DNA of 64,000 bases, taken from assembly GCA_963613175.1 (NCBI GenBank), contig CAVDXX010000002.1, positions 19,005 to 83,004 of the forward strand, read 5' to 3'. The position numbers and the translations under genes were made by a program. Under the pieces are notes generated by a model. It was not told the origin of the DNA, searched no databases, and was given only the letters and a program-made list of their open reading frames with translations. The stretch is from a bacterium. GTDB lineage: Bacteria; Patescibacteriota; Saccharimonadia; Saccharimonadales; Saccharimonadaceae. How positions within the stretch are numbered: the first letter of the stretch is position 1; every line of letters begins with the position of its first letter. This document shows positions 7,917 through 62,945 of this stretch, one piece after another.

Positions 7917-8204
7917 ATGGAGATAAAACGCGAGGATATTTTACATTTGGCGAAGTTGTCGAATTTTTCGGTTTCGGACGCAGAGGCAGAAAGTTTGGAG
8001 CGCGATTTAAGTGATATTATTAAATACATTTCTCAACTTGATGAATTAGAAACGGAGAATGTGGAGCCGACCTATCAAGTTTTTGAGATGGAAAATGTGT
8101 GGCGACCGGACGAGGTTTTGGAGCAGGACGCGACGCGAGAAGAATTACTCGCATTGACAGTTGCAGAAAAAGATCATCAAATTAAAGTCCCGAAGGTATT
8201 ATAA
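7917..8204 (+). CDS. gatC: Asp/Glu-tRNA amidotransferase subunit C
   Basis: 95 aa. HLAKLSNFSVSDAEAESLERDLSDIIKYISQLDELETENVEPT. Stop overlaps the gatA start (ATGA). Confidence 0.85.
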   Translation: MEIKREDILHLAKLSNFSVSDAEAESLERDLSDIIKYISQLDELETENVEPTYQVFEMENVWRPDEVLEQDATREELLALTVAEKDHQIKVPKVL

Positions 8205-9739
8205 TGAAAATTGCAAATCAAAAAGTTTCGGCGGTAAGTTTAGTAAAAGATGCGCTAGAAAAGGCGAAAAAGTTTGAAGATTATCATATTTTTACATTTT
8301 TGAACGAGGAGAAGGCCTTAGAAAAGGCGCACGAAATCGACCAGCGAATTAAAAATGGGGAAGAAGTAGGTCGGCTCGCGGGCGTGCCGTATGCCTTAAA
8401 AGATAATTTTCTCTCACCCGAGGGCGAGACAACCGCTTCGGCACATATTTTAGAAGGTTTTACTTCGCCGATTACGGCGACGACGGTGGAGCGACTCGAA
8501 GCAGAGGGTGCGATTATGATTGGACGGACGAATATGGATGCGTTTGCACACGGGTCGTCGACTGAAAGTTCGTATTTTGGACCGACTTTGAATGCTCACG
8601 ATCGCGAACGTGTAGCGGGCGGGTCGTCTGGCGGATCGGCAGTGGTGGTGGCGCTCGACATTGTGGAATTTGCGACTGGAACGGACACGGGTGGTTCGAT
8701 TCGACAGCCGGCTTCGTTTAATGGTGTCTATGGGCTAAAACCGACGTATGGGTGTAATTCGCGATATGGAGTCGTGGCGATGGCATCATCGACGGACTGT
8801 GTTGGCTTCTTTACTAAAACGCTGGAAGATATGGATCTTTTGATGTCGATTTCGAGTGGTAAAGACCCGAAAGATATGACGACTTTGGATAATTATTACA
8901 ATGGTGAATTTGAAGCATCTTGTCTCGGACACGCTCAAGGCCGCTCGGCCAAGCCTATGGTCCTCGACAAGGTGCTTTCAAATTCTGATAAAAAAACATC
9001 TCACTGCCCGACGGGTGATGCCACTTGGGGGTCCCCCATCGAGCTTGATGAGAATGGGGGAAAAGTGGCGGCAGGACCTGTCGGGAAGAAATGTATCGGC
9101 ATTATCAAAGATTTTGATAATGATTCAGTTGATGTGGAGATTCGGGAGGCGCTGAAACGGAAGTGTGAGTTGTTGGAATCGAAGGGACATGAGATTGTGG
9201 AGTTGTCGATGCCGGCTTTGAAATATGCGTTGGCGGCGTATTATATTATTGTGCCGGCGGAAGTGGCGTCGAATTTATCGCGACACGACGGCGTAAGATA
9301 TGGTTTTCGGTCGAAAAAGTCGGAAGATTTGGAAAAGTTGTATTCCGAGACGCGCTCGGAAGGCTTTATGCCGGAAAACAAGCGCCGAATTATGATCGGG
9401 AACTTTGTGTTGTCGAGCGGATTTTATGATGCGTATTTTTTGAAGGCGGCGAAAGCGCGAACCTTAATCATTGAAGAGTATAATAAAGCTTTTGAAAAAT
9501 GCGATTTTATCTTAACACCAGTAGCGCCAAATCCAGCATTTAAACTCGGTGAAAAAGTGAATGATCCGGTTGCAATGTATCTCGAAGATGCAATGAGCGT
9601 GCCGCTTAATCTCGCGGGAGTGCCGGGACTTACCGTACCGGCAGGAAAAACAAAAGCTGGATTGCCGATCGGTTTACAATTAATCGGTCCGCGCCGAAGT
9701 GATAAAAGTTTAATTATGTTCGCAGGGGAGCTTGAATAA
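8204..9739 (+). CDS. gatA: Asp/Glu-tRNA amidotransferase subunit A (amidase family) with a ~59-codon in-frame insertion
   Basis: Amidase signature GGSSGGSAVVVA...GTDTGGSIRQPASFNGVYGLKPTYG. C-terminal LPIGLQLIG. Confidence 0.9.
   Translation: MKIANQKVSAVSLVKDALEKAKKFEDYHIFTFLNEEKALEKAHEIDQRIKNGEEVGRLAGVPYALKDNFLSPEGETTASAHILEGFTSPITATTVERLEAEGAIMIGRTNMDAFAHGSSTESSYFGPTLNAHDRERVAGGSSGGSAVVVALDIVEFATGTDTGGSIRQPASFNGVYGLKPTYGCNSRYGVVAMASSTDCVGFFTKTLEDMDLLMSISSGKDPKDMTTLDNYYNGEFEASCLGHAQGRSAKPMVLDKVLSNSDKKTSHCPTGDATWGSPIELDENGGKVAAGPVGKKCIGIIKDFDNDSVDVEIREALKRKCELLESKGHEIVELSMPALKYALAAYYIIVPAEVASNLSRHDGVRYGFRSKKSEDLEKLYSETRSEGFMPENKRRIMIGNFVLSSGFYDAYFLKAAKARTLIIEEYNKAFEKCDFILTPVAPNPAFKLGEKVNDPVAMYLEDAMSVPLNLAGVPGLTVPAGKTKAGLPIGLQLIGPRRSDKSLIMFAGELE
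8912..9088. repeat. GC-rich nested-palindrome element inside gatA
   Basis: Stem 8912-8924 pairs with 8966-8979 around a 41-nt core (8925-8965). That core is 38/41 identical to 57183-57223. A second imperfect palindrome spans 9004-9088. Confidence 0.75.
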
Positions 9740-10158
9740 TGGACGGGGGTGTTATTACTTTTATTCTGGCGATTTTAATTGTAGCAGTGTTCGTTTTTTT
9801 GGCAATTCTTTTGACCGGAAAACGCGGTTATACTTTTAATCGCGAAGTTTACCAGTCGCGATTTTTGGCGATTGAAAATAAATTGAAGGAAAATAATCCC
9901 GCGACTTTTATGACCACAATTATTGAAGCAGATAAGTTGCTTGATAAGGCGCTGATTGAGATGGGTGTGCCGGGAAAAACAATGGGGGATCGTTTGAAAA
10001 AATCCGGCGATAAGTTTTCGAATCTGAATTCAGTTTGGCGCGTGCATAAAATGCGTAATGCGATTGCGCACGAATCGGGTTACGAAGTGAGTTATCGACA
10101 AGCGTTTAATGCCTTAACGGTTTACAAACAAGCGTTAAAAGATTTAGGAGCAATTTAA
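9739..10158 (+). CDS. Small N-terminally anchored protein with HEPN/DUF4145-like RNxxxH motif
   Basis: One N-terminal TM segment (ITFILAILIVAVFVFLAILL). All-helical C-terminal part with VWRVHKMRNAIAHE. 1-nt overlaps with the gatA stop and the gatB start. Confidence 0.5.
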   Translation: MDGGVITFILAILIVAVFVFLAILLTGKRGYTFNREVYQSRFLAIENKLKENNPATFMTTIIEADKLLDKALIEMGVPGKTMGDRLKKSGDKFSNLNSVWRVHKMRNAIAHESGYEVSYRQAFNALTVYKQALKDLGAI

Positions 10159-11705
10159 TGAAATATTTACCGACTATCGGCATCGAATGCCATGTTCAGT
10201 TATCAACTAAAACTAAATTATTTTCGGAGGTCGACAACGACGCGCGAGGGAAGGAGCCGAACTCATGCGTATCGCCGGTGGATTATGCATTGCCGGGGAT
10301 GTTGCCGCGGCTAAATGGTGAGGCGATAAAATTCGCGGTGCGAGCGGGGCGGGCGATGAACTGCGAGATTAACGCCGAGTCGCGGTTTGACCGTAAACAT
10401 TATTTTTATCCGGATTCGCCCAAAGGCTATCAGATTACACAATTTTACCACCCGATTATTGGGGCGGGATTTGTGGAGCTGCCATCAGGGACAAAAATCC
10501 GAATCGAACATGCGCACCTCGAGGGCGACGCAGGGAAATTGACCCATTTCGACACTTATTCTTTGGTAGATTTAAATCGCGTAGATACGCCATTGATTGA
10601 AATTGTCTCGATGCCGGACATCCATTCCGCGAAAGATGCGCACGATTATTGTAAGGAATTGTGGCGGCTGATGCGGTATGCTAAGGTGACTTATGGGGAT
10701 TTGTATAACGGAAACATGCGGTTTGATGTTAACGTGTCGCTAGCGCCGGAAGGATCGAGCGAGCTCGGCACACGAGCGGAAGTGAAAAATTTGAATTCTT
10801 TTAGGTCGGTGGAGCGGGCAGTAGAATATGAAATTAAGCGCCAAACAAAAATCTTAGAGTCAGGCGAAAAAGTGATTCAAGAAACTCGTGGTTGGAGTGA
10901 TGCTGCTGGTAAAACTACAGGACAGCGTTCGAAAGAGGAAGCGAAAGATTATCGCTATATGCCGGAGCCGGATTTGCCACCGCTGAATTTGTCTCGTGAA
11001 TTTATCGACGAACAACTCGCTGATTTTCCGCTAATGCCGGCGGATTATCGACGGGAGTTTAAGGACGTGATTGCTGGTGATATTTTGGAGATTTTGCTGG
11101 ATTATCCAGAGTTGATGGAAAAGTTAGCGGAAGTGGCTGACGCACTCCATCTCGGACACGCTCAAGGCCGCGAGTGCTCGCAATCAGAGCAAGTGCCTTC
11201 GGGGGACGGGTCGCTTCAGCCCGTCGTCACGGGTGAAGCGCCCTCATCCTCGGTCGTAACCTCCGGAAGCCCCCGAAAGCACTTGCTTCTGATTGCTAAC
11301 TTGTTCACCTCTGTTTTACTGGCGGAGGAAAAGTCGGCGGAGTTTCTGAACGATCTGCCGAGTGCGGATGCCCTGAATACCTTGGCAGAGATGAATGCGA
11401 AGAAAGAACTTAGTTCAACGGCGACAAAAGAAGTGTTTTTGCGCTTATTTGATCCGCAGATGAAAACGCGAGGCGTGGAGCAAATTGCGAAAGAGCTGGG
11501 GTTGATTCAGGAAAATGACCTTGGGGCGCTCGAAAAAATTGTGGATGCGGTGCTAGCAAAACCAGAGACAAAGCAGGCGCAAGATGATTTTCGGGCCGGG
11601 TCGGAAAAAGTGCTTGGGTTCTTGGTTGGGCAAGTGATGAAGGAGTCGAAAGGCAAGGCTAACCCGTCCAGCGTGCAAGAAATTCTGCGCAAAAAATTAT
11701 CATAA
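10158..11705 (+). CDS. gatB: Asp/Glu-tRNA amidotransferase subunit B with in-frame insertion
   Basis: GIECHVQL, DRKHYFYPD, HLEGDAGK, NLNSFRSVERA, YRYMPEPDLPP. GatB/YqeY-like tail. Confidence 0.9.
   Translation: MKYLPTIGIECHVQLSTKTKLFSEVDNDARGKEPNSCVSPVDYALPGMLPRLNGEAIKFAVRAGRAMNCEINAESRFDRKHYFYPDSPKGYQITQFYHPIIGAGFVELPSGTKIRIEHAHLEGDAGKLTHFDTYSLVDLNRVDTPLIEIVSMPDIHSAKDAHDYCKELWRLMRYAKVTYGDLYNGNMRFDVNVSLAPEGSSELGTRAEVKNLNSFRSVERAVEYEIKRQTKILESGEKVIQETRGWSDAAGKTTGQRSKEEAKDYRYMPEPDLPPLNLSREFIDEQLADFPLMPADYRREFKDVIAGDILEILLDYPELMEKLAEVADALHLGHAQGRECSQSEQVPSGDGSLQPVVTGEAPSSSVVTSGSPRKHLLLIANLFTSVLLAEEKSAEFLNDLPSADALNTLAEMNAKKELSSTATKEVFLRLFDPQMKTRGVEQIAKELGLIQENDLGALEKIVDAVLAKPETKQAQDDFRAGSEKVLGFLVGQVMKESKGKANPSSVQEILRKKLS
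11142..11296. repeat. GC-rich nested-palindrome element inside gatB
   Basis: 22-mer tctcggacacgctcaaggccgc is identical to gatA 8923-8944. Imperfect inverted repeat of about 25 bp, 11180-11205 against 11270-11296. Inner hairpin 11213-11239. Confidence 0.75.
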
Positions 11706-21755: not shown

Positions 21756-21768
21756 TATAATAGAAAAA

Positions 21769-21860
21769 TAATATCAAGAAGGAACGAGGGATCGGCCCAA
21801 CGACTTCCTGCCAACCTAGCGATGCCAAGGTGGTAAATCCGACCAGAAAGGAAAGATATG
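21769..21860 (+). promoter_or_regulatory. SAM-I (S-box) clan riboswitch, probably translational
   Basis: UAUCAAGAAGG..GAGGGAUCGGCCCAACGACUUCCUGCCAACC..CCAAGGUGGUAAAUCC..AGAAAGGAAAGAUAUG matches the S-box core (GAGGGA/GGCCC/GCAACC-like/AAGGUG.UAAAUCC). The P1 3' strand overlaps the SD and ATG 21858. TATAAT at 21756-21761. Confidence 0.8.
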
Positions 21861-22820
21861 TTCTATCGAACCGCGGAGAGCGTTTCTCCGAAACACCCAG
21901 ATAAACTTTGCGACCAAATCAGCGATGCGATTTTGGATGCGTATTTAAAAGAAGACCCGAACGCACGAGTCGCGGCGGAAGCTTGCGGTGGGCACGGAGT
22001 AGTGTTTGTGACCGGCGAAATCACATCGACAGCGACGGATATTGATATCCCGGCAATCGTGAGACGAATTGCGGGGGAAGTTGAAGTACATACGAAAATC
22101 GTGGAACAATCTCCCGAAATTGCGCAGGGCGTCGATACCGGGGGCGCGGGCGATCAGGGAATCATGATTGGGTTTGCGTGCGATGAAACTCCGGAACTTT
22201 TGCCACGCGAAGTCGTGTTGTCTCGTCGGCTAAATCAATATATTTACGAAAAGTTCCCGTTTGACGGTAAAACACAGGTAACGATTGCACCGGACGGTTC
22301 GATTGATTCGATTGTGGCGAGTTTTCAAAATGCGCCGAAAGACGAGCTTACGGAATTAGTGCAGGGATTTATTGCGGAAAATAACTTGTCCGGCAAGTTG
22401 GAACTGCATATAAATCCAGCCGGAGACTGGAATCAAGGCGGTTTTGACGCCGATACGGGGCTGACCGGGCGAAAGTTGATCGTGGACAATTACGGCCCGC
22501 GAGTGGCGATTGGCGGAGGTTGTTATTCAGGCAAGGACCCGTCGAAAGTCGATCGCTCGGCGGCGTATATGGCACGAAAAGTGGCAGTGGATTATTTGAG
22601 AGAGCGCGGGGCGCATGAAGTGTTGGTGCGACTGGCTTATGCAATCGGATACGCCGAGCCATTAGAAAAAACTGTGATCATTGATGGTCAGCCGGAAGAA
22701 ATCGAAGGCTACGATTTAACACCGAACGGAATTATTGAATTTTTGGACCTAAAACGCCCGATTTACGAACAAACCGCCCGCTATGGCCATTACGGCGAGG
22801 GGTTTGGGTGGGATAAATAA
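21858..22820 (+). CDS. metK: S-adenosylmethionine synthetase, compact form (320 aa)
   Basis: HPDKLCDQISDAILDA, GAGDQGIMIGFA, GLTGRKLIVD, GKDPSKVDRSAAYMAR. Confidence 0.88.
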   Translation: MFYRTAESVSPKHPDKLCDQISDAILDAYLKEDPNARVAAEACGGHGVVFVTGEITSTATDIDIPAIVRRIAGEVEVHTKIVEQSPEIAQGVDTGGAGDQGIMIGFACDETPELLPREVVLSRRLNQYIYEKFPFDGKTQVTIAPDGSIDSIVASFQNAPKDELTELVQGFIAENNLSGKLELHINPAGDWNQGGFDADTGLTGRKLIVDNYGPRVAIGGGCYSGKDPSKVDRSAAYMARKVAVDYLRERGAHEVLVRLAYAIGYAEPLEKTVIIDGQPEEIEGYDLTPNGIIEFLDLKRPIYEQTARYGHYGEGFGWDK

Positions 22821-41257: not shown

Positions 41258-41559
41258 CAGTTGGTACACAAAAAGTGTGCCACACCGCACCTAAATAAGT
41301 TATAATTTCAGCTATACTGTTTTTAGTATAGCAGAAATTGCGAGCTTTTGAAACCCTTTCGGGCTTTGAATTTCTTCATGGTTCAATGCTTATAAGTATT
41401 ACCTCCACTTTGAAAGGAAGCTTTCGAAGGCTTAGCAATCCCTCTAACCGGCGGGCCCCAATTTGTGTGAGGTGGGTCGCGCTTCCGGGGTCTCTCCCGG
41501 TATAGTGAGAAGCGTTAGAGGGCCGAAATAGCCTCAGGTGATGCCCACCCTTACCTGAG
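41258..41559 (+). ncRNA. Candidate structured ncRNA of unknown class (own promoter and terminator)
   Basis: Extended -10 TGcTATAAT at 41243-41251, with a second TATAAT at 41291-41296. No ORF. Several hairpins. 13-bp terminator stem 41517-41556 plus a T-run. The topA promoter lies downstream of the terminator. Confidence 0.35.
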
Positions 41560-41627
41560 GCTATTTTTGTGGGGAAATTGTGCACGTTTTTACGGTTATG
41601 CTTGACGGGTGTGGTATGATTATATAT

Positions 41628-44084
41628 ATGACGAAAAATTTGGTGATTGTGGAGAGCCCGGCGAAGGCGAAAACGATCGAGAAATATCTCGGGGCGGATT
41701 TTCGAGTGCTGGCGTCGGTTGGACATATCCGAAAAGATACAAAAGTCGATAAAACTACTTTTGATGTGACTTATGAGATTGACCCGGGACACAAACAGAT
41801 TATTTCGGAGTTAAAAAAGGCAGCGAAGGATGCGGAGCAGATTTGGCTCGCAACTGATGAGGACCGCGAGGGAGAGTCAATTTCGTGGCACTTATGCGAA
41901 GTATTGAACTTGCCGAAAGACACGGCGCGGATTACTTTTCACGAAATTACCAAACCGGCGCTCGAGAACGCGATTAAAAATCCACGGACGGTAGATATGG
42001 ATATGGTGGCAAGTCAGCAGGCGCGTCAGACGCTAGATATGCTGGTGGGATATGATTTGTCGGACATTGTGCGACGAAAAGTCCCTGGAGCGGTGTCGGC
42101 AGGGCGAGTTCAGAGTCCGGCGCTAAGACTGATTGTCGAGCGTGAGAAAAAGATTGAACAATTTGAAAGTAAATTTGATTTTAAAGTTAATGGCCGATTC
42201 ACATCAACCGGCGAAACTGGTGTAATTCCGGAAAATTCCGATCTCAATTTCGTCGCAAAAGGCGAGGTGGTGGTTTTTGATGGATTTTTGAAGGTTTATG
42301 GCAAAAGTAAGGATTCTGAGTTGCCGAAAATGGCAAAAGGTGAGCGTGTCCAACTCGAGGGGTTGAGTGCGAAGCAGAACTTTGCTAAACCGCCAGCGCG
42401 ATATACTGAGGGGTCGCTGGTGAAAAAGCTGGAAGAACTCGGAATCGGACGGCCGTCGACTTACGCCTCGATTATGACCGCGATTCAGGCGCGAGGTTAT
42501 GTCGTCAAGGGGGAATCAGAGGGCGAAAAACGCGAAGTGGCGGTCTATACGGTGGGCGATCCGGGAACAAAAACAGGAAGGATCGATGACGATACAGAAA
42601 ATGAGACTTTAGAAGAACAGGGAGCCGAACTTACGCCCGAAACAGACGGGGCGCAAACTTTTGTGGCGAATTTTGGTGGGGAAGCGCCAAAAGAGGAGAC
42701 GGAAGCGGAAAAATTATTAACAGATTTAACAGAGGCGGAATTCGTAGTAACAGAGGTGGAAGAAAAAGAAGGCTCAAAAGCCAATCCAACACCATTCACG
42801 ACTGCAGCCTTACAGATCGAGGCAAATGCGAAACTTGGTTTTTCGTCGCGGACAACAATGAGCGCGGCGCAAGGACTGTATCAGGCCGGTCTGATTACTT
42901 ACCACCGAACCGATTCTCTGAATTTATCGTCACAAGCAGTGGCGGCGATTGCTGGGTTTATTGAAGCGAATTTTGGGAAAAATTATCTGAAAGTGCGACA
43001 TTTCAAAACGAAAGACGCTTCGGCGCAAGAAGCGCACGAAGCGATTCGGCCGACAAATGTTCAAACCACAGTTGCAGGGAAGAATAATTATGAAAAACGA
43101 CTTTATCAGCTAATCTGGTCGCGAACGGTGGCGACGCAGATGGCGAACGCAAAAGTGGCAAAAACTACGGTGAAAATCGGGGTTAATACAAGCGCAGACA
43201 ACGGCTCCGAAAAATCCGCGAAAAATGCTCTAGATACGGGGGTGAAACGCGAAATTGTCAGTGAAAAATTCGGAGCAAACAAGGGGAAATTAGTGCCGAC
43301 GCCGATCGGGGAATTGGTTTCGGGGTTTTTGACCGAAAATTTCCAAAATATTGTTGATTATCGGTTTACGGCGAATATTGAGAAGGATTTGGATTTGGTA
43401 GCGGACGCAAAATTGGAGCGAGTGAAGATGCTACGAGATTTCTATGGACCGTTTCATGATACGGTTTTGGCCGCCAATGGGGTGGAGCGATACAATAATG
43501 CGAGGCTGCTCGGTCATGACCCGGAAACCGGCAAACCGATCTATGCGAAAATTGGTAAAAATGGCGGATTTATCCAACTCGGCGGGAACGAGAAAGAAAC
43601 AGGGGAAAAACCGCGTTTTGCGCCATTGCCGAAGCGAAAATCAGTAAAAACCGTGAGTCTAGAGCAAGCTTTAGGACAGCTCGCGTTGCCAGCTTTGCCG
43701 CGATCACTCGGGAAAGCGCCGGATGGAACGGAAATCATCGCGGCGAACGGACCATTTGGGCCGTATCTTAAGAGTGGAAAATACAATATTCCGATGAAAG
43801 AGTTAGATCCTTATACGGTTAGCTTAGAAGAAGCTCTGCCACTTTATCAGGCGAAAATTGATTCAATCATTGCGGATTGGGGCGAAATTATGATTATCAA
43901 TGGAGCTTATGGACCTTATGTAAAGGGCCCGGGACGACGTAATAACGTCAAAATCCCGAAAGAGACCGATCCGAAAACGGTAACACTGGCGCAGGCGGAA
44001 GAGATGTTAAAAAATAAGCCGAAAACTACTCGTCGGGGGACGCGGGGGCGGGGAAAAACTAAAAAGAAGAGCTCAAAAAAGTAG
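41628..44084 (+). CDS. topA: DNA topoisomerase I (type IA) with non-canonical order of conserved segments
   Basis: Toprim LVIVESPAKAKTI, DEDREGE. GIGRPSTYASI at 42441-42473. Active-site GLITYHRTDS (Tyr codon 42900-42902). QEAHEAIRPT. C-terminal GPYLK/GPYVK repeats. Lys-rich tail. Confidence 0.85.
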   Translation: MTKNLVIVESPAKAKTIEKYLGADFRVLASVGHIRKDTKVDKTTFDVTYEIDPGHKQIISELKKAAKDAEQIWLATDEDREGESISWHLCEVLNLPKDTARITFHEITKPALENAIKNPRTVDMDMVASQQARQTLDMLVGYDLSDIVRRKVPGAVSAGRVQSPALRLIVEREKKIEQFESKFDFKVNGRFTSTGETGVIPENSDLNFVAKGEVVVFDGFLKVYGKSKDSELPKMAKGERVQLEGLSAKQNFAKPPARYTEGSLVKKLEELGIGRPSTYASIMTAIQARGYVVKGESEGEKREVAVYTVGDPGTKTGRIDDDTENETLEEQGAELTPETDGAQTFVANFGGEAPKEETEAEKLLTDLTEAEFVVTEVEEKEGSKANPTPFTTAALQIEANAKLGFSSRTTMSAAQGLYQAGLITYHRTDSLNLSSQAVAAIAGFIEANFGKNYLKVRHFKTKDASAQEAHEAIRPTNVQTTVAGKNNYEKRLYQLIWSRTVATQMANAKVAKTTVKIGVNTSADNGSEKSAKNALDTGVKREIVSEKFGANKGKLVPTPIGELVSGFLTENFQNIVDYRFTANIEKDLDLVADAKLERVKMLRDFYGPFHDTVLAANGVERYNNARLLGHDPETGKPIYAKIGKNGGFIQLGGNEKETGEKPRFAPLPKRKSVKTVSLEQALGQLALPALPRSLGKAPDGTEIIAANGPFGPYLKSGKYNIPMKELDPYTVSLEEALPLYQAKIDSIIADWGEIMIINGAYGPYVKGPGRRNNVKIPKETDPKTVTLAQAEEMLKNKPKTTRRGTRGRGKTKKKSSKK

Positions 44085-48433: not shown

Positions 48434-48577
48434 ACATCGGAACAAGAGAAACAGAACTTGGAGAAATGGTGGATTTTGATGGACGAAAAATCGGCTGAGC
48501 GACGAATGCTTGGATGGTGATTTTTATATATCCTTAATGTCGCACAATATAGATTTTAAGACATTACGGTTATGTTT

Positions 48578-48604
48578 AAAAGACGACCAAGTTATCGTCT
48601 TTTA
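48578..48604 (+). terminator. Intrinsic terminator after the ATPase gene
   Basis: Stem aaagacga / tcgtcttt with an 8-nt loop and a T-run. Confidence 0.65.
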
Positions 48605-48718
48605 GGGGGCTAAAGTTGCAAAAAGCGAGAGAGAACCGTAAGGACTATGTTTTTGAAAATATTTTTAATACTCACAAAGGCTTCGCTCGCGGACGTTTTT
48701 TCGTTTGTTTTGATGATC

Positions 48719-48882
48719 GTCCTAAAAGGTTTCACTGGCGGACAATCTCGCCAGCCAAAGAAAAATTCGAGGAGCCTAGTCAAGACGAGCAAGGGCCCGT
48801 CCCCCGACGCAGTCCTGATTAGGCGACGAGGATTTTTCTTTGCGCGCAGTCGAGAACGTCCGCCGGTAAAATCTTTTAGGGC
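48719..48882. repeat. 25-bp imperfect inverted repeat with ~115-nt GC-rich spacer
   Basis: gtcctaaaaggtttcactggcggac (48719-48743) against gtccgccggtaaaatcttttagggc (48858-48882): 21/25 complementary. Confidence 0.7.
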
Positions 48883-49209
48883 CATCTTGAGAAAACATTT
48901 TTAGACGTTTTAACGTGATCGTCCTTGAGCTTTGACGATTTTTGGGCGTTTTTGGTGGATTTTTCGGTTTTTCGGGTGTTTTTTTAAATTTGACTTTTTC
49001 CCCTTTTTATTTCCCTATTTCCTTTTTTCCCCTGTTGGCTGCCATTATTTTTTATTTTATGTTTGTTTTTGTATTAGGACGTTTCCGAACAAAAACCGAA
49101 CAGAAGCAGAGAAGAAAAGAGAAGTAGCGTTTTAGAGGTCAACAGGGGCAAATTTCCCGTTTTTAGGGATCATCTTTCTATTATCCTTGAGACAAACAGA
49201 GGTAACTCC

Positions 49210-55815: not shown

Positions 55816-56691
55816 TCAATTCCGCTTCCGAGCGAGGCGCAATTTAGCGCTGCGCGATCGCGGGTTGATAACTAACTCCTCACTCTCCGCAACAATAGGC
55901 TTTTTGTTGATTAGTTCCAAAGGGGATTCTTCGCCGAGACTGGTGGCCGCTTTGAAGTAGTCCTTGACTAACCGGTCTTCTAGACTGTGAAAGGTGATAA
56001 TTCCGAGACGGCCGTTTCTGTTTAGCAGTTTCGGAATAAGTGGCAAAGTTTTTTCAATTTCGCCGAGTTCATCGTTAACTGCGATGCGGACCGCTTGGAA
56101 GACCTTGGTGGCGGGATGGATGTGTGAATAGCGAGATTTAGATTTAACTAAATCCGCAAGTTCGCTAGTGGTTTTCAGCGGGCGGTGATGAACTATTTCG
56201 CGAGCCAACATCTTGGCGCGTCCGGGCTTTTCTTCGCCGAAGTTAATGAAAATTTCGGCTAGTTCCCGTTCGCTAGTTTTATTAATGATGTCGGCAGCGG
56301 TTCTTCCCTGCCTGCGATCCATCCGCATGTCCAGAGGGGCGTCGTTTTTAAACGAAAAACCGCGCTCGGCCATGTCTAGTTGCGGAGAAGAAACTCCAAA
56401 ATCCGCGAGAATTAAATCAAAAGTCGCTCCACACTCGAAAAGTTGCAGCACCGCACTATAAAAATCCGTATGTTTTAAGCTGATTTCGGACGGAAGATGC
56501 TGTTTTAAATATTCGATAGCAAATTCGTCACGATCAACCAGACAAGAATCTTTATAATTCTGTGTCACAGCCAAAATTTCGCTAGCATGCCCACCGTAAC
56601 CTGCGGTTAAGTCAAGATAACTTTCATCGGGTTTTGGTTCGAGCCCTGCTAGGACTTCTGATAATAACACTGGGATATGTAGTTTCTCCAT
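55816..56691 (-). CDS. rsmH: 16S rRNA (cytosine1402-N4)-methyltransferase
   Basis: HIPVLLSEV, DLTAGYGGHA, DFGVSSPQLD, ITFHSLEDR. Start set at MEKLH because TATAAT (56703-56698) lies 6 nt upstream. Confidence 0.9.
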   Translation of the reverse strand: MEKLHIPVLLSEVLAGLEPKPDESYLDLTAGYGGHASEILAVTQNYKDSCLVDRDEFAIEYLKQHLPSEISLKHTDFYSAVLQLFECGATFDLILADFGVSSPQLDMAERGFSFKNDAPLDMRMDRRQGRTAADIINKTSERELAEIFINFGEEKPGRAKMLAREIVHHRPLKTTSELADLVKSKSRYSHIHPATKVFQAVRIAVNDELGEIEKTLPLIPKLLNRNGRLGIITFHSLEDRLVKDYFKAATSLGEESPLELINKKPIVAESEELVINPRSRSAKLRLARKRN

Positions 56692-57139
56692 GTGTATATT
56701 ATACACTGTTTTTGTTCGCTTGAGACCGTTCAACTAGAAACTGCGGCGGGTTTGTGTTTGCTTTGATTTTTGTTTAGACACAATATAATCCACCACGATT
56801 ATAGTAATCGTAGCCGTTGAGAGACTTATTGTGTAATAGACCATAGAGTTTTAATTGGGAGGTGTGTTTTGAGGAAGGTACGCACGATTGTTTTGTCGCA
56901 TCTCGCTTAAATTTAATGCGCGCCAAAGCTCCTAGTTGGTCGGTCTCAAACTTTTTTAATGTACTTTTGTTTCGCGTTTTTGTTGTTTTATTCGCTTAAC
57001 ATTAGTTTATGATATTTTCTAAATTTTAGCAAGAGCTTTTTTGGACTTTTTTGCACTTTTTAGTTTTCAACAATTGTGGAAAACTTCCCTGTTAATTTAC
57101 CGAACAAAGCGCGTTGAAAATTGCCGAAAAATGTGTCAT

Positions 57140-57236
57140 AAAAACCGAACACTTGGGCGAAAGCAATCAGAAAATGCCTTTTTCGGACACACTCAAGGCC
57201 GTTCGGCCAAGCTTATGGTCCTCAAAAGGCATTTTC
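57140..57236. repeat. Intergenic copy of the palindromic element (perfect 13-bp stem + 41-nt core)
   Basis: aaaaaccgaaca 12-mer at 57140-57151. Stem gaaaatgcctttt (57170-57182) pairs with aaaaggcattttc (57224-57236). Core 57183-57223. Confidence 0.8.
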
Positions 57237-57296
57237 GATTGCAAAACATTGCGCAAGATATGATATAATTAGCAGATAAAAGGAGAGGTAAAAAAA

Positions 57297-58271
57297 ATGG
57301 AAGAATTTGATGTGTTTCTCTGGGCGAACGAGATTGACGAGGTAAAAAATAATGTTTCCGCGGAGTTGTTTTTGTTTAATAAAAACTATACGCCCTTTAA
57401 GATTAAGTATTCGGATAAGCTGACAGGAGCGGTGAAGGCAATGTTCATGCAAGAAGCAGTGAATTTTGTGAACGAAGAAGCTGAAAAGGGTTTGGAATGT
57501 CGCGAATACGAGAAGGCGGACGGCGAGGAGAAGGTGATTTATAAAACTTCCCTGTCGAAAGTCGGACGAGCGGAAACTTTGATTCATCTGATCGAAAATG
57601 AATATAAAGATATTGACTATTTTTCAGAGAATGAACATGATTTTAAGAAGGTGAAGGGTATCATTGCAAAATTCACTTACCCTGGCGGCGAAGACGGGAC
57701 GAAGACTTTTTACATCGCAAAATTGTTGCCAGCGTCGGGGGCGCTAAAAGGTGCAACCTCTTGGGAAATTAAGGGTGAGAGTTTCGAACCGTTTTCGGCG
57801 GAAATCGCGCTAAAAATGCCGGAAGATAACCAAGTGGCGATTGTGGATAAGACGATTGTTGTGTTCAATCAGGCGAAATTCGAGAATTTGTTTCAATACG
57901 ATTACAAGTCGCAGGTGATTGCCGAAGCGAAGGCAAAAGAATTGTGTGAAAAATATAAATTGTCATTTGCGGAGGGGCTGACGCTAGACGCTCTACTCGC
58001 GGACAAGAAGCCGATTTTGAAAAAAGTGCAGGCGATGGATATTGCCGAAGAGATGCCGCAAGAAAAATTATTGGATTATGCGGATGAAATGCAACTGGAG
58101 TTGATGACGGACGACGAAGGCTCGATTATTATTATGGACGATAAAGATTTGACTATGTTTGTAAATTTGTTGAACGAAGATTATTATGTCTCGCCGGTGA
58201 ATGGACGGCGATACGAGATAAAATCAAAAAAGTTGCTCAGTGAGCCGGATGGTGAGCCACCAAGAGGGTGA
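57297..58271 (+). CDS. DUF4868 / KwaB-like protein (Kiwa defence component-like), solitary
   Basis: 324 aa. Overall pattern and length recalled for DUF4868, e.g. ...IVVFNQAKFENLFQYDY.... SD AAGGAGAGG. Assignment from memory only. Confidence 0.4.
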   Translation: MEEFDVFLWANEIDEVKNNVSAELFLFNKNYTPFKIKYSDKLTGAVKAMFMQEAVNFVNEEAEKGLECREYEKADGEEKVIYKTSLSKVGRAETLIHLIENEYKDIDYFSENEHDFKKVKGIIAKFTYPGGEDGTKTFYIAKLLPASGALKGATSWEIKGESFEPFSAEIALKMPEDNQVAIVDKTIVVFNQAKFENLFQYDYKSQVIAEAKAKELCEKYKLSFAEGLTLDALLADKKPILKKVQAMDIAEEMPQEKLLDYADEMQLELMTDDEGSIIIMDDKDLTMFVNLLNEDYYVSPVNGRRYEIKSKKLLSEPDGEPPRG

Positions 58272-60932: not shown

Positions 60933-62945
60933 ATGTATTACGAGGTGATTCCGGAAGGAAAAGTTGGGAGGTTGACTTATCATAGCGAGGTTGGTTCCCT
61001 GGTGTCGGGGCAGGTTGTCTTAGTGTCGCTCGGACGACGGACTGTGCCGGGGGTGGTGGTGAAAAAAGTTGCTCAACCGAATTTTCAGACCAAGCCGATT
61101 GTGAAAATTTTGTATACAAAGCCGTTGCCGCGGCAGCTTTTGGCGGTGGTGCGGTTTTTGCGCGCATATTATCTGACGGCTGAGGGAGAGGGGGTCTCTT
61201 TGATTTTGCCGAATGGGGTTGAGAAACAGAGACGGAAGGCAAAAACCGAACAAATGTTCGGGAACAACTTATCTCTGGACGGGTCCTGTCGTCGCCTCCC
61301 CCCCAAAAATTTTTGTCAAGACAAAACATTTTTGGGGTCCCCTCCGGCGACACCACCCGTCCAGGTCGATATTCCGCTTAACCCTGCTCAAAAAATGGCC
61401 CTAGAAGGCCTGCAGAAGGCTCCAGGAGCGACGAAACTGCTGTTTGGCTTAACTGGTAGTGGTAAAACGAACATCTACCTTAAAATGGCGCTAAACGCGT
61501 TTAAACGGCAAAAATCTACGATCGTTTTAGTGCCGGAAATTGCTTTGACAGGGCAGTTGGTACGGGTTTTTCGGCAGGTTTTTGGCGAAAATGTGGTGTT
61601 AATTCATTCAAAACAAACAGAGGCGGAACGACACCGAATTTTTGATTCCCTGCTTTTTAGCGAAGGGCCGAAAATTGTAATTGGTCCGCGTTCGGCGTTG
61701 TTTGCGCCCCTGTCGAATTTGGGACTGATCGTGGTTGATGAGGAGCACGAAACGAGCTATTATCAAGAAAATGCGCCGAAATATTCGGCAATACGAGTGG
61801 CGAGTTTTTTGGCGCAGGAATTGAAAATTGATTGTATTTTAGGCTCGGCAACGCCGGAAATTGCGGATTTTTATCTGGCTTCGAAACTGGGATCGGTGGT
61901 AAAACTAACAGAGAAAGCGAAAGCGACGGCGATCAAGCCTGAGGTAAAAATTGTCGATTTTAAAAATCGCGATAATTTCCGAAAAAATCGGTATTTTTCG
62001 GGGGTATTGCTCGCGGCGATAGAGAGGAATCTAGAACAGGAGCAGCAAACGCTGATTTTTCATAACCGACGGGGGTCGGCGCCGCTGACAATTTGTGAAA
62101 ATTGCGGCGAAGAGATCCTCTGTCCGAATTGTTTTTTGCCGCTGACCTTGCACGCTGATAATTATGATTTAGTTTGCCATACCTGTGGTTTTTCGGAAAA
62201 AGTCCCCTCGTGTTGTCCAAAATGCGGGACGCCCGGGATGGTACATAAGGGGTTTGGGACAAAATTATTAGAGACGGAGCTGAAAAAATTGTTTCCGAAG
62301 GCGAAGGTGCGGCGGTTTGATGCGGATAATAAGAAGGAGGAACGATTAGAGGCGGTTTATGATGCGGTACGAGAAGGCGAAATTGATATTTTAGTGGGGA
62401 CGCAGACGATTGCGAAGGGACTGGACTTGCCGAAACTCGCAACGGTTGGGGTCGTTCAGGCTGATGCAGGGCTATCTTTGCCGGATTTTATGGCGGAAGA
62501 GCGGGTTTTTCAACTTTTGACACAGGTGATGGGTCGAGTGGGTCGGGGACATTCGGAAATTGCGGAAATGATCGTGCAGACTTTTCGGCCGGAGCATCCG
62601 GTGCTGAAATTTGCGCTGGCCGAAGATTATCAGGGATTTTATCAGTATTTAATAAGGCGGCGTCAGAAATCCGGTTTCCCGCCGTTTCGGTTCGTGATGA
62701 AACTGGAAATTACACTAAAAACAGAGGCGGTAGTACTGAAAAAAGTGCGGACGACGGTGCAAGAATTGTCGGCTAATACCGATTTAATTGTTTCCCCGCC
62801 CCAGCCGGCTTTTCACGAGCGAACGGCGCGAGGATTTACTTGGCAAATTATCGTGCGATCGCAGTCGCGAGCGAAATTATTGAAAGCCTGCGAAGGACTA
62901 GACAAGAATTTCAAAGTAACGCTTGATCCGCCAGGACTACTGTAA
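60933..62945 (+). CDS. priA: Primosomal protein N' (replication restart helicase PriA) with palindromic in-frame insertion
   Basis: GLTGSGKTN, VVDEEHE, Cys4 zinc cluster CENCGEEILCPNC...CHTCG...CPKCG, GTQTIAKGLD, GRVGRG. Confidence 0.88.
   Translation: MYYEVIPEGKVGRLTYHSEVGSLVSGQVVLVSLGRRTVPGVVVKKVAQPNFQTKPIVKILYTKPLPRQLLAVVRFLRAYYLTAEGEGVSLILPNGVEKQRRKAKTEQMFGNNLSLDGSCRRLPPKNFCQDKTFLGSPPATPPVQVDIPLNPAQKMALEGLQKAPGATKLLFGLTGSGKTNIYLKMALNAFKRQKSTIVLVPEIALTGQLVRVFRQVFGENVVLIHSKQTEAERHRIFDSLLFSEGPKIVIGPRSALFAPLSNLGLIVVDEEHETSYYQENAPKYSAIRVASFLAQELKIDCILGSATPEIADFYLASKLGSVVKLTEKAKATAIKPEVKIVDFKNRDNFRKNRYFSGVLLAAIERNLEQEQQTLIFHNRRGSAPLTICENCGEEILCPNCFLPLTLHADNYDLVCHTCGFSEKVPSCCPKCGTPGMVHKGFGTKLLETELKKLFPKAKVRRFDADNKKEERLEAVYDAVREGEIDILVGTQTIAKGLDLPKLATVGVVQADAGLSLPDFMAEERVFQLLTQVMGRVGRGHSEIAEMIVQTFRPEHPVLKFALAEDYQGFYQYLIRRRQKSGFPPFRFVMKLEITLKTEAVVLKKVRTTVQELSANTDLIVSPPQPAFHERTARGFTWQIIVRSQSRAKLLKACEGLDKNFKVTLDPPGLL
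61241..61362. repeat. Palindromic element inside priA
   Basis: aaaaaccgaaca 12-mer at 61241-61252. ccgaaca-aa-tgttcgg hairpin. Imperfect inverted repeat 61277-61315 against 61322-61362. Confidence 0.7.

Follow-up and report, generated by a model that had tools for sequence, protein, structure and literature searches.

The window considered here is a 64,000-nucleotide (nt) stretch of a Saccharimonadaceae genome (assembly GCA_963613175.1, contig CAVDXX010000002.1); the term refers throughout to this whole stretch. Its gatA gene contains in-frame DNA built of large hairpins, one of which carries at its apex a 41-nt core that recurs in gatB, between genes and in other genomes. This genome has probably been colonised by a selfish family of short foldback (palindromic) repeats that behaves much like the Rickettsia palindromic elements (RPE), to which an earlier note on the same DNA had compared the gatA insert.

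The gatA insert and its hairpin modules

In the window, the operon order is gatC-gatA-(139-aa open reading frame)-gatB. The host of the insert, gatA (8204-9739, plus strand), encodes 511 aa with a Pfam Amidase domain and a match to GatA in the PDB (E = 1e-115); every one of its nearest homologues is annotated as Saccharibacteria. A block of 159 nt (53 codons; 8903-9061, plus strand) is missing in the close orthologue L004 and is flanked in the DNA alignment by ...TATTACAAT and AAAGTGGCGGC.... The extra DNA proposed in the earlier note is thus a real insert, with a size of 159 nt against L004 in place of about 177 nt. Folding of positions 8900-9100 reproduces the two hairpins that had been drawn there (-87.5 kcal/mol, z = -5.75). 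In a sliding fold scan of the 64 kb, the insert and repeat regions rank among the few strongest local structures, and a palindrome in priA is another outlier.

Hairpin module 1 (8906-8985, plus strand) folds as a left arm (8906-8924), the 41-nt core (8925-8965) and a right arm (8966-8985); its translation is EFEASC-LGHAQGRSAKPMVL-DKVLSNS. The peptide strings SAKPMVLDK and EFEASCLGHAQGR are predicted for the translated insert. Covariance model R1, built on 77 copies of the repeat, scores module 1 at 79.2 bits (8917-8973). Orthologous copies with compensatory stem changes occur at L002, L007, L008, L025, L083 and L120: the arms pass from TGTC/GACA through TATC/GATA to CATC/GATG, and the inner helix from GGCC/GGCC to GGGC/GCCC. 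Hairpin module 2 (9007-9085, plus strand) also folds and has no core; minus-strand BLAST and alignment show its inverted form in L120 and L025.

The gatA-site DNA was compared in seven relatives. L004 (GatA of 461 aa) is without the 159 nt of window 8903-9061 and keeps the right arm of hairpin 2 (AAAGTGGCGGCAGGACCTGTCGGG, 9061-9085), so this arm exists in an insert-free orthologue. L007 and L008 (479 and 486 aa) have hairpin 1 alone. L005 (487 aa) has hairpin 2 and a leftover of the hairpin 1 left arm, and L006 (473 aa) holds that left arm with half of the core, an in-frame deletion derivative. The hairpins described in the earlier note therefore exist, but what it treated as one element comprises two independent modules (L007/L008 vs L005) together with sequence that is also found in the insert-free orthologue.

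Solved GatA structures align with window GatA up to residue 227 and again from residue 297, about 20 residues replacing about 70. A homologous peptide, which the earlier note had asked to be sought in unrelated GatA proteins, is found in none of the solved structures, and close relatives are also without it. Among 29 aligned Saccharibacteria GatA proteins (75-93% identical), lengths run from 456 to 534 aa and all length differences map to a single place, between TTLxDYY(N) and (R/K)IGIIKDFDN. This place is taken by several insert families that are unrelated to one another, and the core-derived peptide LGHAQGRSAKP is present in only some of the 29. An AlphaFold2 model made from this alignment to place the segment on a surface loop was poor (mean pLDDT 44), and only the alignment to solved structures was used.

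The 139-aa open reading frame between gatA and gatB (9739-10158, plus strand) is conserved, has no Pfam match, and is an unusual fourth gene of the gatCAB operon. It is also present in all six relatives whose contigs reach that far; the contig of the seventh, L007, ends just past gatA.

Further copies in the window

In agreement with the earlier note, the core at 8925-8965 has a counterpart at 57183-57223 that differs from it by 3 mismatches; 100 shuffles gave no match. This full intergenic copy (57163-57242, plus strand; arms 57163-57182 and 57224-57242) folds with z = -7.2, scores 81.4 bits with R1, and has orthologues at L081 and L121. Its neighbours are rsmH (55816-56733, minus strand) and a KwaB-like gene (57297-58271, plus strand). 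The latter lies directly downstream of the intergenic core and matches the Pfam KwaB-like family (Kiwa anti-phage defence; E = 3e-8), passing the curated cut-off.

The second host gene is gatB (10158-11705, plus strand; 515 aa, compared with 475 aa in L002 and 526 aa in L004). The 22-mer of gatA (8923-8944) that had been noticed in gatB is indeed exact there, at 11150-11171, and belongs to a truncated copy of the same element (11130-11171, plus strand): a left arm (11130-11151) and the first 20 nt of the core (11152-11171), the remainder being deleted. Relatives L100, L102 and L120 hold the full core hairpin at the same gatB site. In the window, the left arm and 20 nt of core are fused to another large hairpin, module B (11180-11296, plus strand; z = -6.9), with its apex at about 11198-11272 (...SGDGSLQPVVTGEAPSSSVVTSG...). 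This apex represents a second in-frame repeat family that recurs in L090 (twice), L035, L114 (on both strands), L072 and L025. The peptide of the module B apex is ...QPVVTGEAPSSSVVTSG..., and a similar peptide occurs in the GatA insert of P0060.

A core-less, near-perfect, in-frame palindrome of 105 nt (61262-61366, plus strand; z = -8.4) lies in priA (60933-62945), between the 3'-DNA-binding and helicase domains. The core stands on a similar outer stem (GGGTCCTGTC... / ...CCACCCG), possibly also within priA, in L046, L063, L092, L098, L101 and L117. L121, with flanks 95% identical, has a different module at the priA site. Altogether, the window has, by R1, exactly two full copies (79 and 81 bits) and the truncated gatB copy, and all three lie on the plus strand, where cumulative GC skew rises.

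Family size and carriers

An exact-pattern scan of one genome per species, which answers the earlier note's call for a search for further copies, matched at least 117 stretches; all but two chance matches hold the full core, and each listed copy has its own distinct self-complementary stem. Application of R1 to 816 kb of loci adds about 10 diverged copies. Among the matches listed, the carriers are nearly all metagenome-assembled genomes (MAGs) of Saccharibacteria or Nanosyncoccus, many of them from the ruminant gut.

About 10 of the matches listed are in Bifidobacterium (B. rousetti, B. santillanense, B. miconisargentati and others; L015, L029, L060, L062, L069, L080, L089, L095, L103 and L122). 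Their core is nearly identical, 38-40 nt long, and their stems are G+C-rich and perfect over 22-28 bp; the copy at L069 follows the stop codon of an aspartase-like gene at a distance of 25 nt. Actinobacteria, the phylum of Bifidobacterium, provide the hosts on which cultured Saccharibacteria live as epibionts. The Bifidobacterium core may thus mark DNA exchange between Saccharibacteria and Actinobacteria.

The repeat family is previously undescribed, with no Rfam, phage, plasmid or literature match. Rfam 15, at gathering and permissive thresholds, has no family over the element, only generic hairpin and miRNA models far below their cut-offs. In the literature, no paper was found that connects such elements with Saccharibacteria or Patescibacteria, and none was found to contain the core string. 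The earlier note had likewise known of no description.

Anatomy and covariation of the core

The family signature is an apex of 38-41 nt, T-CGGACACRCTCNAGGSCGYTCGSCCRAGCYTAYGGTCC-TC. The core folds as three helices, P2 (GGAC/GUCC), P3 (GCU/AGC) and P4 (GGSC/GSCC), closed by a GYUC loop. In the 77 copies, 94% of stem cells are paired, and double-change cells number 279, compared with 98 in shuffles. P4 is dimorphic, with C-G in 38 copies and G-C in 36. Columns 18 (internal loop) and 29 (apical loop), which correspond to window positions 8933 and 8944 in alignment A4, also covary, with G-C in 47 copies, A-U in 28 and 2 exceptions. The pairing reaches across P4 and hardly depends on the P4 state (mutual information 0.78 vs 0.095); a tertiary pair or an alternative fold could lie behind it. 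The covariation of aligned copies suggests a folded single strand, with gene conversion among copies as an alternative.

Outside the core, the 6 bp beside it form a clamp: among 48 de-duplicated loci, 88-98% have pyrimidines in the 5' arm and purines in the 3' arm, and among copies about 90-99% do. Arm positions 10-13 form another purine/pyrimidine patch, and farther out the arms are unrelated. The stem beyond the clamp extends over about 10-30 bp and is different at every locus. The stems called non-homologous in the earlier note accordingly have locus-specific arms, but they share this clamp. To the left of the core, the nucleotides of Saccharibacteria copies show a bias towards pyrimidines, and those of Bifidobacterium copies show none. 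A molecular ruler for arm length was considered and rejected; gapless stem lengths spread broadly, from 5 to 30 bp.

Residence inside genes

Of 119 copies, 61 lie in frames that are open for at least 50 codons on either side. The frames in which in-gene copies are found are 0, 1 and 2 on the same strand and 0 on the opposite strand, which are the four stop-free frames of the core out of six. Both orientations are found within genes, and 19-21 of these copies are antisense to the host gene. The core peptides differ by gene and frame (LGHAQGR..., SDTLKAVRPSL..., EDHKLGR...).

About 17 length differences between filled and empty in-gene sites are available, all of them multiples of 3 and between 66 and 159 nt (those listed are 66, 66, 69, 72, 75, 78, 93, 99, 102, 111, 141 and 159 nt). 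Filled and empty intergenic sites differ by 86, 87, 95 and 96 nt. The DNA added in genes is also free of stop codons, and these two properties explain how in-gene copies persist. Since the differences are all multiples of 3, read-through translation is indicated rather than removal of the segment; judging from the reading frames, the insert is probably transcribed and translated as part of the host protein. An intein, an intron or a bypass element is an unlikely explanation: the added DNA is stop-free and a multiple of 3 in open reading frames only, and 53 residues are too short for intein motifs.

The host genes with a core are gatA, gatB, ligA and a BipA-like GTPase gene; priA has the core-less palindrome. 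The insertion places are the variable GatA loop after TTLxDYY, a helical region of GatB, the LigA loop before EVRGE, the interdomain linker of PriA and a domain 2 loop of the GTPase. In ligA, the core lies between NIPLKL and EVRGE, and LigA homologues are 655-713 aa long, the length varying at one site that holds several insert families, as is also the case in gatB. Copies thus lie where the host protein tolerates an additional loop.

Turnover and inversion at shared sites

The gatA, gatB, ligA, priA and GTPase sites are, in relatives, empty, filled, nested, truncated or exactly inverted. Module 2 of gatA (9007-9085 in the window) is present as an exact reverse complement in L120 (1320-1397) and L025 (1838-1912), and the flanks in these two loci share about 90-95% identity with their counterparts in L002 and the window. 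The gatA frame is open in either orientation, reading PTGDATWGSPIELDENGGKVAAGPVG vs PTGPAATFPPFSSSSMGGPQVASPVG; from these alignments, the change would amount to an in-place inversion inside an essential gene. At the GTPase site, where each insertion adds 66 nt, the arms of L074 and L108 are orthologous and the core is opposite; L099 is empty. LigA homologues contain insertions nested within the core apex, and variant cores. Copies that have decayed or suffered deletion include window gatB, L005, L006 and L022. A hairpin site becomes a hot spot, at which further modules arrive, nest and flip in place, and from which they decay by in-frame deletion.

Origin of the arms

The arms differ among copies of one genome, and those of Bifidobacterium have the local base composition; the arms therefore arise locally. 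The ligA site gives the most direct view of how this might happen. The empty allele at L126 reads ...CGACTA|GAGGGTGTTCCTTCTGAAGTAGAA... (LRL|EGVPSEVE), and its EGVPSEVE segment is presumably ancestral, given the E. coli LigA sequence (IPARLE-VRGE). In filled alleles, the right arm matches the native (E)GVPSEVE codons of L126 in 19 of 20 nt (manual count), and the 72 nt added upstream consist of an inverted copy of the segment (the left arm) and the core. The insertion may, tentatively, have added the core and, in inverted form, a copy of the native sequence next to it, made by fold-back synthesis primed by the core hairpin. Such copying of the flank would explain why arms are local. The GTPase site and the pair L073/L002 are compatible with the same reading.

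Another origin of the arms, stems carried along with the core and diverging by transitions, was considered and discarded as the main explanation; orthologous stems diverge at ordinary rates, and Bifidobacterium arms have the local G+C content.

Strand bias

With local GC skew taken as a proxy for the leading strand, CGGAC...GGTCC lies on the G-rich strand, judged over the 8 kb around it, in 86 of 100 loci (p = 8e-14). The rule is kept in 15-16 of 19 copies that are antisense to the host open reading frame; the bias therefore follows the replication or skew strand and not transcription. This argues against a strand-specific RNA motif and favours a mechanism, or selection, that acts on single-stranded DNA during replication.

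Interpretation

On the reading that we consider probable, a selfish foldback repeat has spread through this genome. The element would be moved in trans or by replication and repair, and the placing of the core on the G-rich strand, whatever the direction of the host gene, makes a single-stranded DNA intermediate linked to the direction of replication likely. Several observations weigh against this account. The empty sites that correspond to L112 and L054 contain neither arm, so a fold-back origin is not general. Targeting of pre-existing palindrome centres, which TTGATATCAA, ACAATTGT and ATTATA..TATAAT, palindromic by eye, had seemed to show, was dropped after a systematic comparison with random positions (p = 0.27 to 1). 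About 1 Mb of loci yielded no transposase, no half-site pair and no autonomous partner, a search for an autonomous parent made of half-cores flanking a gene gave only degenerate, variant or partial cores, and the core has no match on phage or plasmid records of IMG/VR, INPHARED and PLSDB. Within protein clusters at 90% identity, full-length members are all of equal length, and no very recent insertion was caught; turnover is thus not rapid at the strain level. At orthologous sites, the core is about 90% conserved, compared with about 70-76% for arms and neighbouring codons, and core orientation is strongly biased although flips occur; both would also fit a function at the level of the host.

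Such a function could be a replication-oriented DNA or single-stranded DNA signal that benefits the host (priming or primosome assembly, a nucleoid or topology protein, polar chromosome organisation; REP/BIME- or KOPS-like), its presence in open reading frames being merely tolerated. The tracking of GC skew regardless of host gene direction, a core that is conserved at orthologous sites and changes almost solely in covarying pairs, the folded single strand implied by the 18-29 pair that crosses P4, the near-identical core in two phyla and the position of the L069 copy shortly past a stop codon all suit this explanation. We nevertheless regard it as unlikely: sites are empty, filled, truncated, inverted or replaced among close relatives, copies decay (window gatB, L006, L022), copy positions vary genome-wide, concerted evolution among copies could imitate conservation, and we know of no protein that binds the core. 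A strand-specific functional RNA motif in mRNAs or untranslated regions (a regulatory, processing or stability element, or a small ribozyme) would account for the very stable folds (z from -5.8 to -7.2), the covarying stems and P4 with a possible loop-loop pair, and the terminator-like appearance of some intergenic copies (A-tract, stem, T-tract). It is very unlikely, given that no Rfam family matches even permissively, that 19-21 in-gene copies are antisense to their hosts, that orthologous copies are flipped (the reverse complement would show other loops) and that orientation follows skew and not transcription.

An ancestral, lineage-specific GatA loop with a protein-level function, its palindromes incidental, might be suspected from the hairpin 1 insert common to lineages about 78% identical in GatA (window, L007, L008) and from the frame that is always kept. 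It is highly improbable as an explanation: GatA proteins at 81-85% identity have no insert, or unrelated inserts at the same site; the same core occurs in other genes, in three frames and antisense, with different peptides, and between genes; module 2 is read either way round; and constraint acts on base pairing and not on residues. An assembly or amplification artefact, in the form of chimeric fold-back reads in MAGs, is scarcely credible. The carriers are mostly MAGs, and a truncated open reading frame call (P0252) begins between the two hairpin modules of the gatA insert, but the same insert occupies the same site in many independent NCBI, ENA and Logan assemblies (one GatA cluster has 14 full-length members, all of 516 aa), orthologous copies have diverged together with their flanks, and copies occur in RefSeq (NZ_) accessions titled as Bifidobacterium strains.

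A more specific proposal, which goes beyond the selfish-repeat reading and which we hold to be doubtful, is that the core serves as recognition module for a mobile or self-propagating DNA element of a new kind. This element would act as a folded single strand with a loop-to-internal-loop pair and be specific to one replication strand; it would build its stem by inverted copying of neighbouring DNA, flip, nest and grow into translated palindromes in essential genes, and would have crossed between Saccharibacteria and Bifidobacterium. If this were true, either the two groups would share a trans-acting enzyme, or the hairpin would be selfish and driven by replication and repair alone.

Relation to known systems

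The closest likeness is to the RPE (RPE-1 to RPE-8), which are short dispersed palindromes in the reduced genome of a host-dependent bacterium. They too have many copies that keep the frame of essential genes and presumably yield surface loops in the protein, as well as copies in non-coding DNA, and they encode no transposase. The presence of dispersed palindromic repeats in frame in gatA, gatB and ligA bears out the comparison made in the earlier note. Its further point, that a conserved core between different stems is the RPE hallmark, does not hold, RPE copies being reportedly alike along their whole length. An RPE family is alike over 100-150 bp including the stems; here only the apex of 38-41 nt and the 6-bp clamp are shared. 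In-place inversion, nesting, GC-skew strand bias and occurrence in a second phylum also distinguish the present family. There is no taxonomic overlap, all carriers listed here being Saccharibacteria or Bifidobacterium, and the two were compared by description and not by sequence. The family is thus an RPE analogue of different architecture, with a conserved apex and local arms, and not an RPE.

REP/BIME and REPIN elements (RAYT/TnpA-REP) are also abundant short hairpin repeats, non-autonomous, often at gene 3' ends, with proposed movement through single-stranded DNA hairpins. In REPINs, the stem is conserved and the loop variable, the reverse of the present arrangement; REPs are essentially extragenic, whereas about half of the copies here are intragenic. 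No RAYT was identified in 8-20 kb windows around copies, and no genome-wide search was made. The IS200/IS605 and PATE elements resemble the family in their folded single-stranded DNA hairpins with non-Watson-Crick or guide pairings, in having no need of terminal inverted repeats or target duplications, and, for IS200/IS605, in an orientation bias to the replication strand, to which the GC-skew proxy corresponds here. However, the left and right ends of IS200/IS605 elements bear hairpins that differ from each other, and the target next to which they insert is a fixed tetra- or pentanucleotide; here there is a single symmetric hairpin, and no conserved target, end pair or TnpA gene was seen.

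The MITEs, or miniature inverted-repeat transposable elements (Neisseria Correia, ERIC, RUP, BOX), are likewise small and non-autonomous, form RNA hairpins and can be co-transcribed with genes. They differ in their conserved terminal inverted repeats and direct target duplications, in contrast to the locus-unique termini and inverted flanking repeats found here. The mobile GC clusters and "byp" elements of yeast mitochondria are reportedly G+C-rich palindromic mini-elements that invade protein-coding genes of an A+T-richer genome, and are similar in that respect. Byps are skipped by the ribosome and need not keep the frame, whereas the in-gene differences described above are multiples of 3. 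Fold-back palindrome formation (Tetrahymena rDNA, hairpin-capped breaks), in which a short inverted repeat beside a break folds onto itself and serves as primer for copying the flank, yields a flank, a non-palindromic centre and an inverted flank, which is the anatomy of the ligA site. It is a rearrangement mechanism and not a repeat family, and is invoked here only as a candidate origin of the arms.

Other features of the window

Above the gathering score, the Rfam matches in the window are two tRNAs and a SAM riboswitch only. The riboswitch (RF00162, 59 bits; 21768-21862, plus strand) is upstream of an open reading frame at 21858-22820. The phosphoketolase is encoded by two consecutive open reading frames on the plus strand, 512-1447 (XFP_N) and 1485-2657 (XFP and XFP_C), as it is in relatives covering the region, an arrangement that suggests a conserved split gene or a recoding site. 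The leader of topA (41580-44084), at 41429-41566, is G+C-rich and strongly folded, with a terminator-like hairpin just before the topoisomerase I start and no Rfam match. Positions 48434-49209 form a 776-nt region without an open reading frame of at least 100 aa; a strong imperfect hairpin in it (48756-48842) has no other copy in the loci compared.

Significance

To our knowledge, in-frame palindromic selfish DNA in essential genes has had essentially one textbook example, Rickettsia. A second family of different architecture, in the Candidate Phyla Radiation, would make the phenomenon general for reduced, host-dependent genomes. Experiments on the mechanism are within reach, given the strand bias and the covarying pairs, now that Saccharibacteria are genetically manipulable. 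Sites that are empty, filled, inverted or nested in close relatives are natural experiments on the uptake of loops by proteins. The 41-nt marker could be used to trace DNA exchange between Saccharibacteria and Actinobacteria. The repeats explain the puzzling length variation and hypervariable loops of Saccharibacteria core proteins, such as GatA (456-534 aa) and LigA (655-713 aa), and bear on gene calling and on alignment-based phylogenomics of this group.

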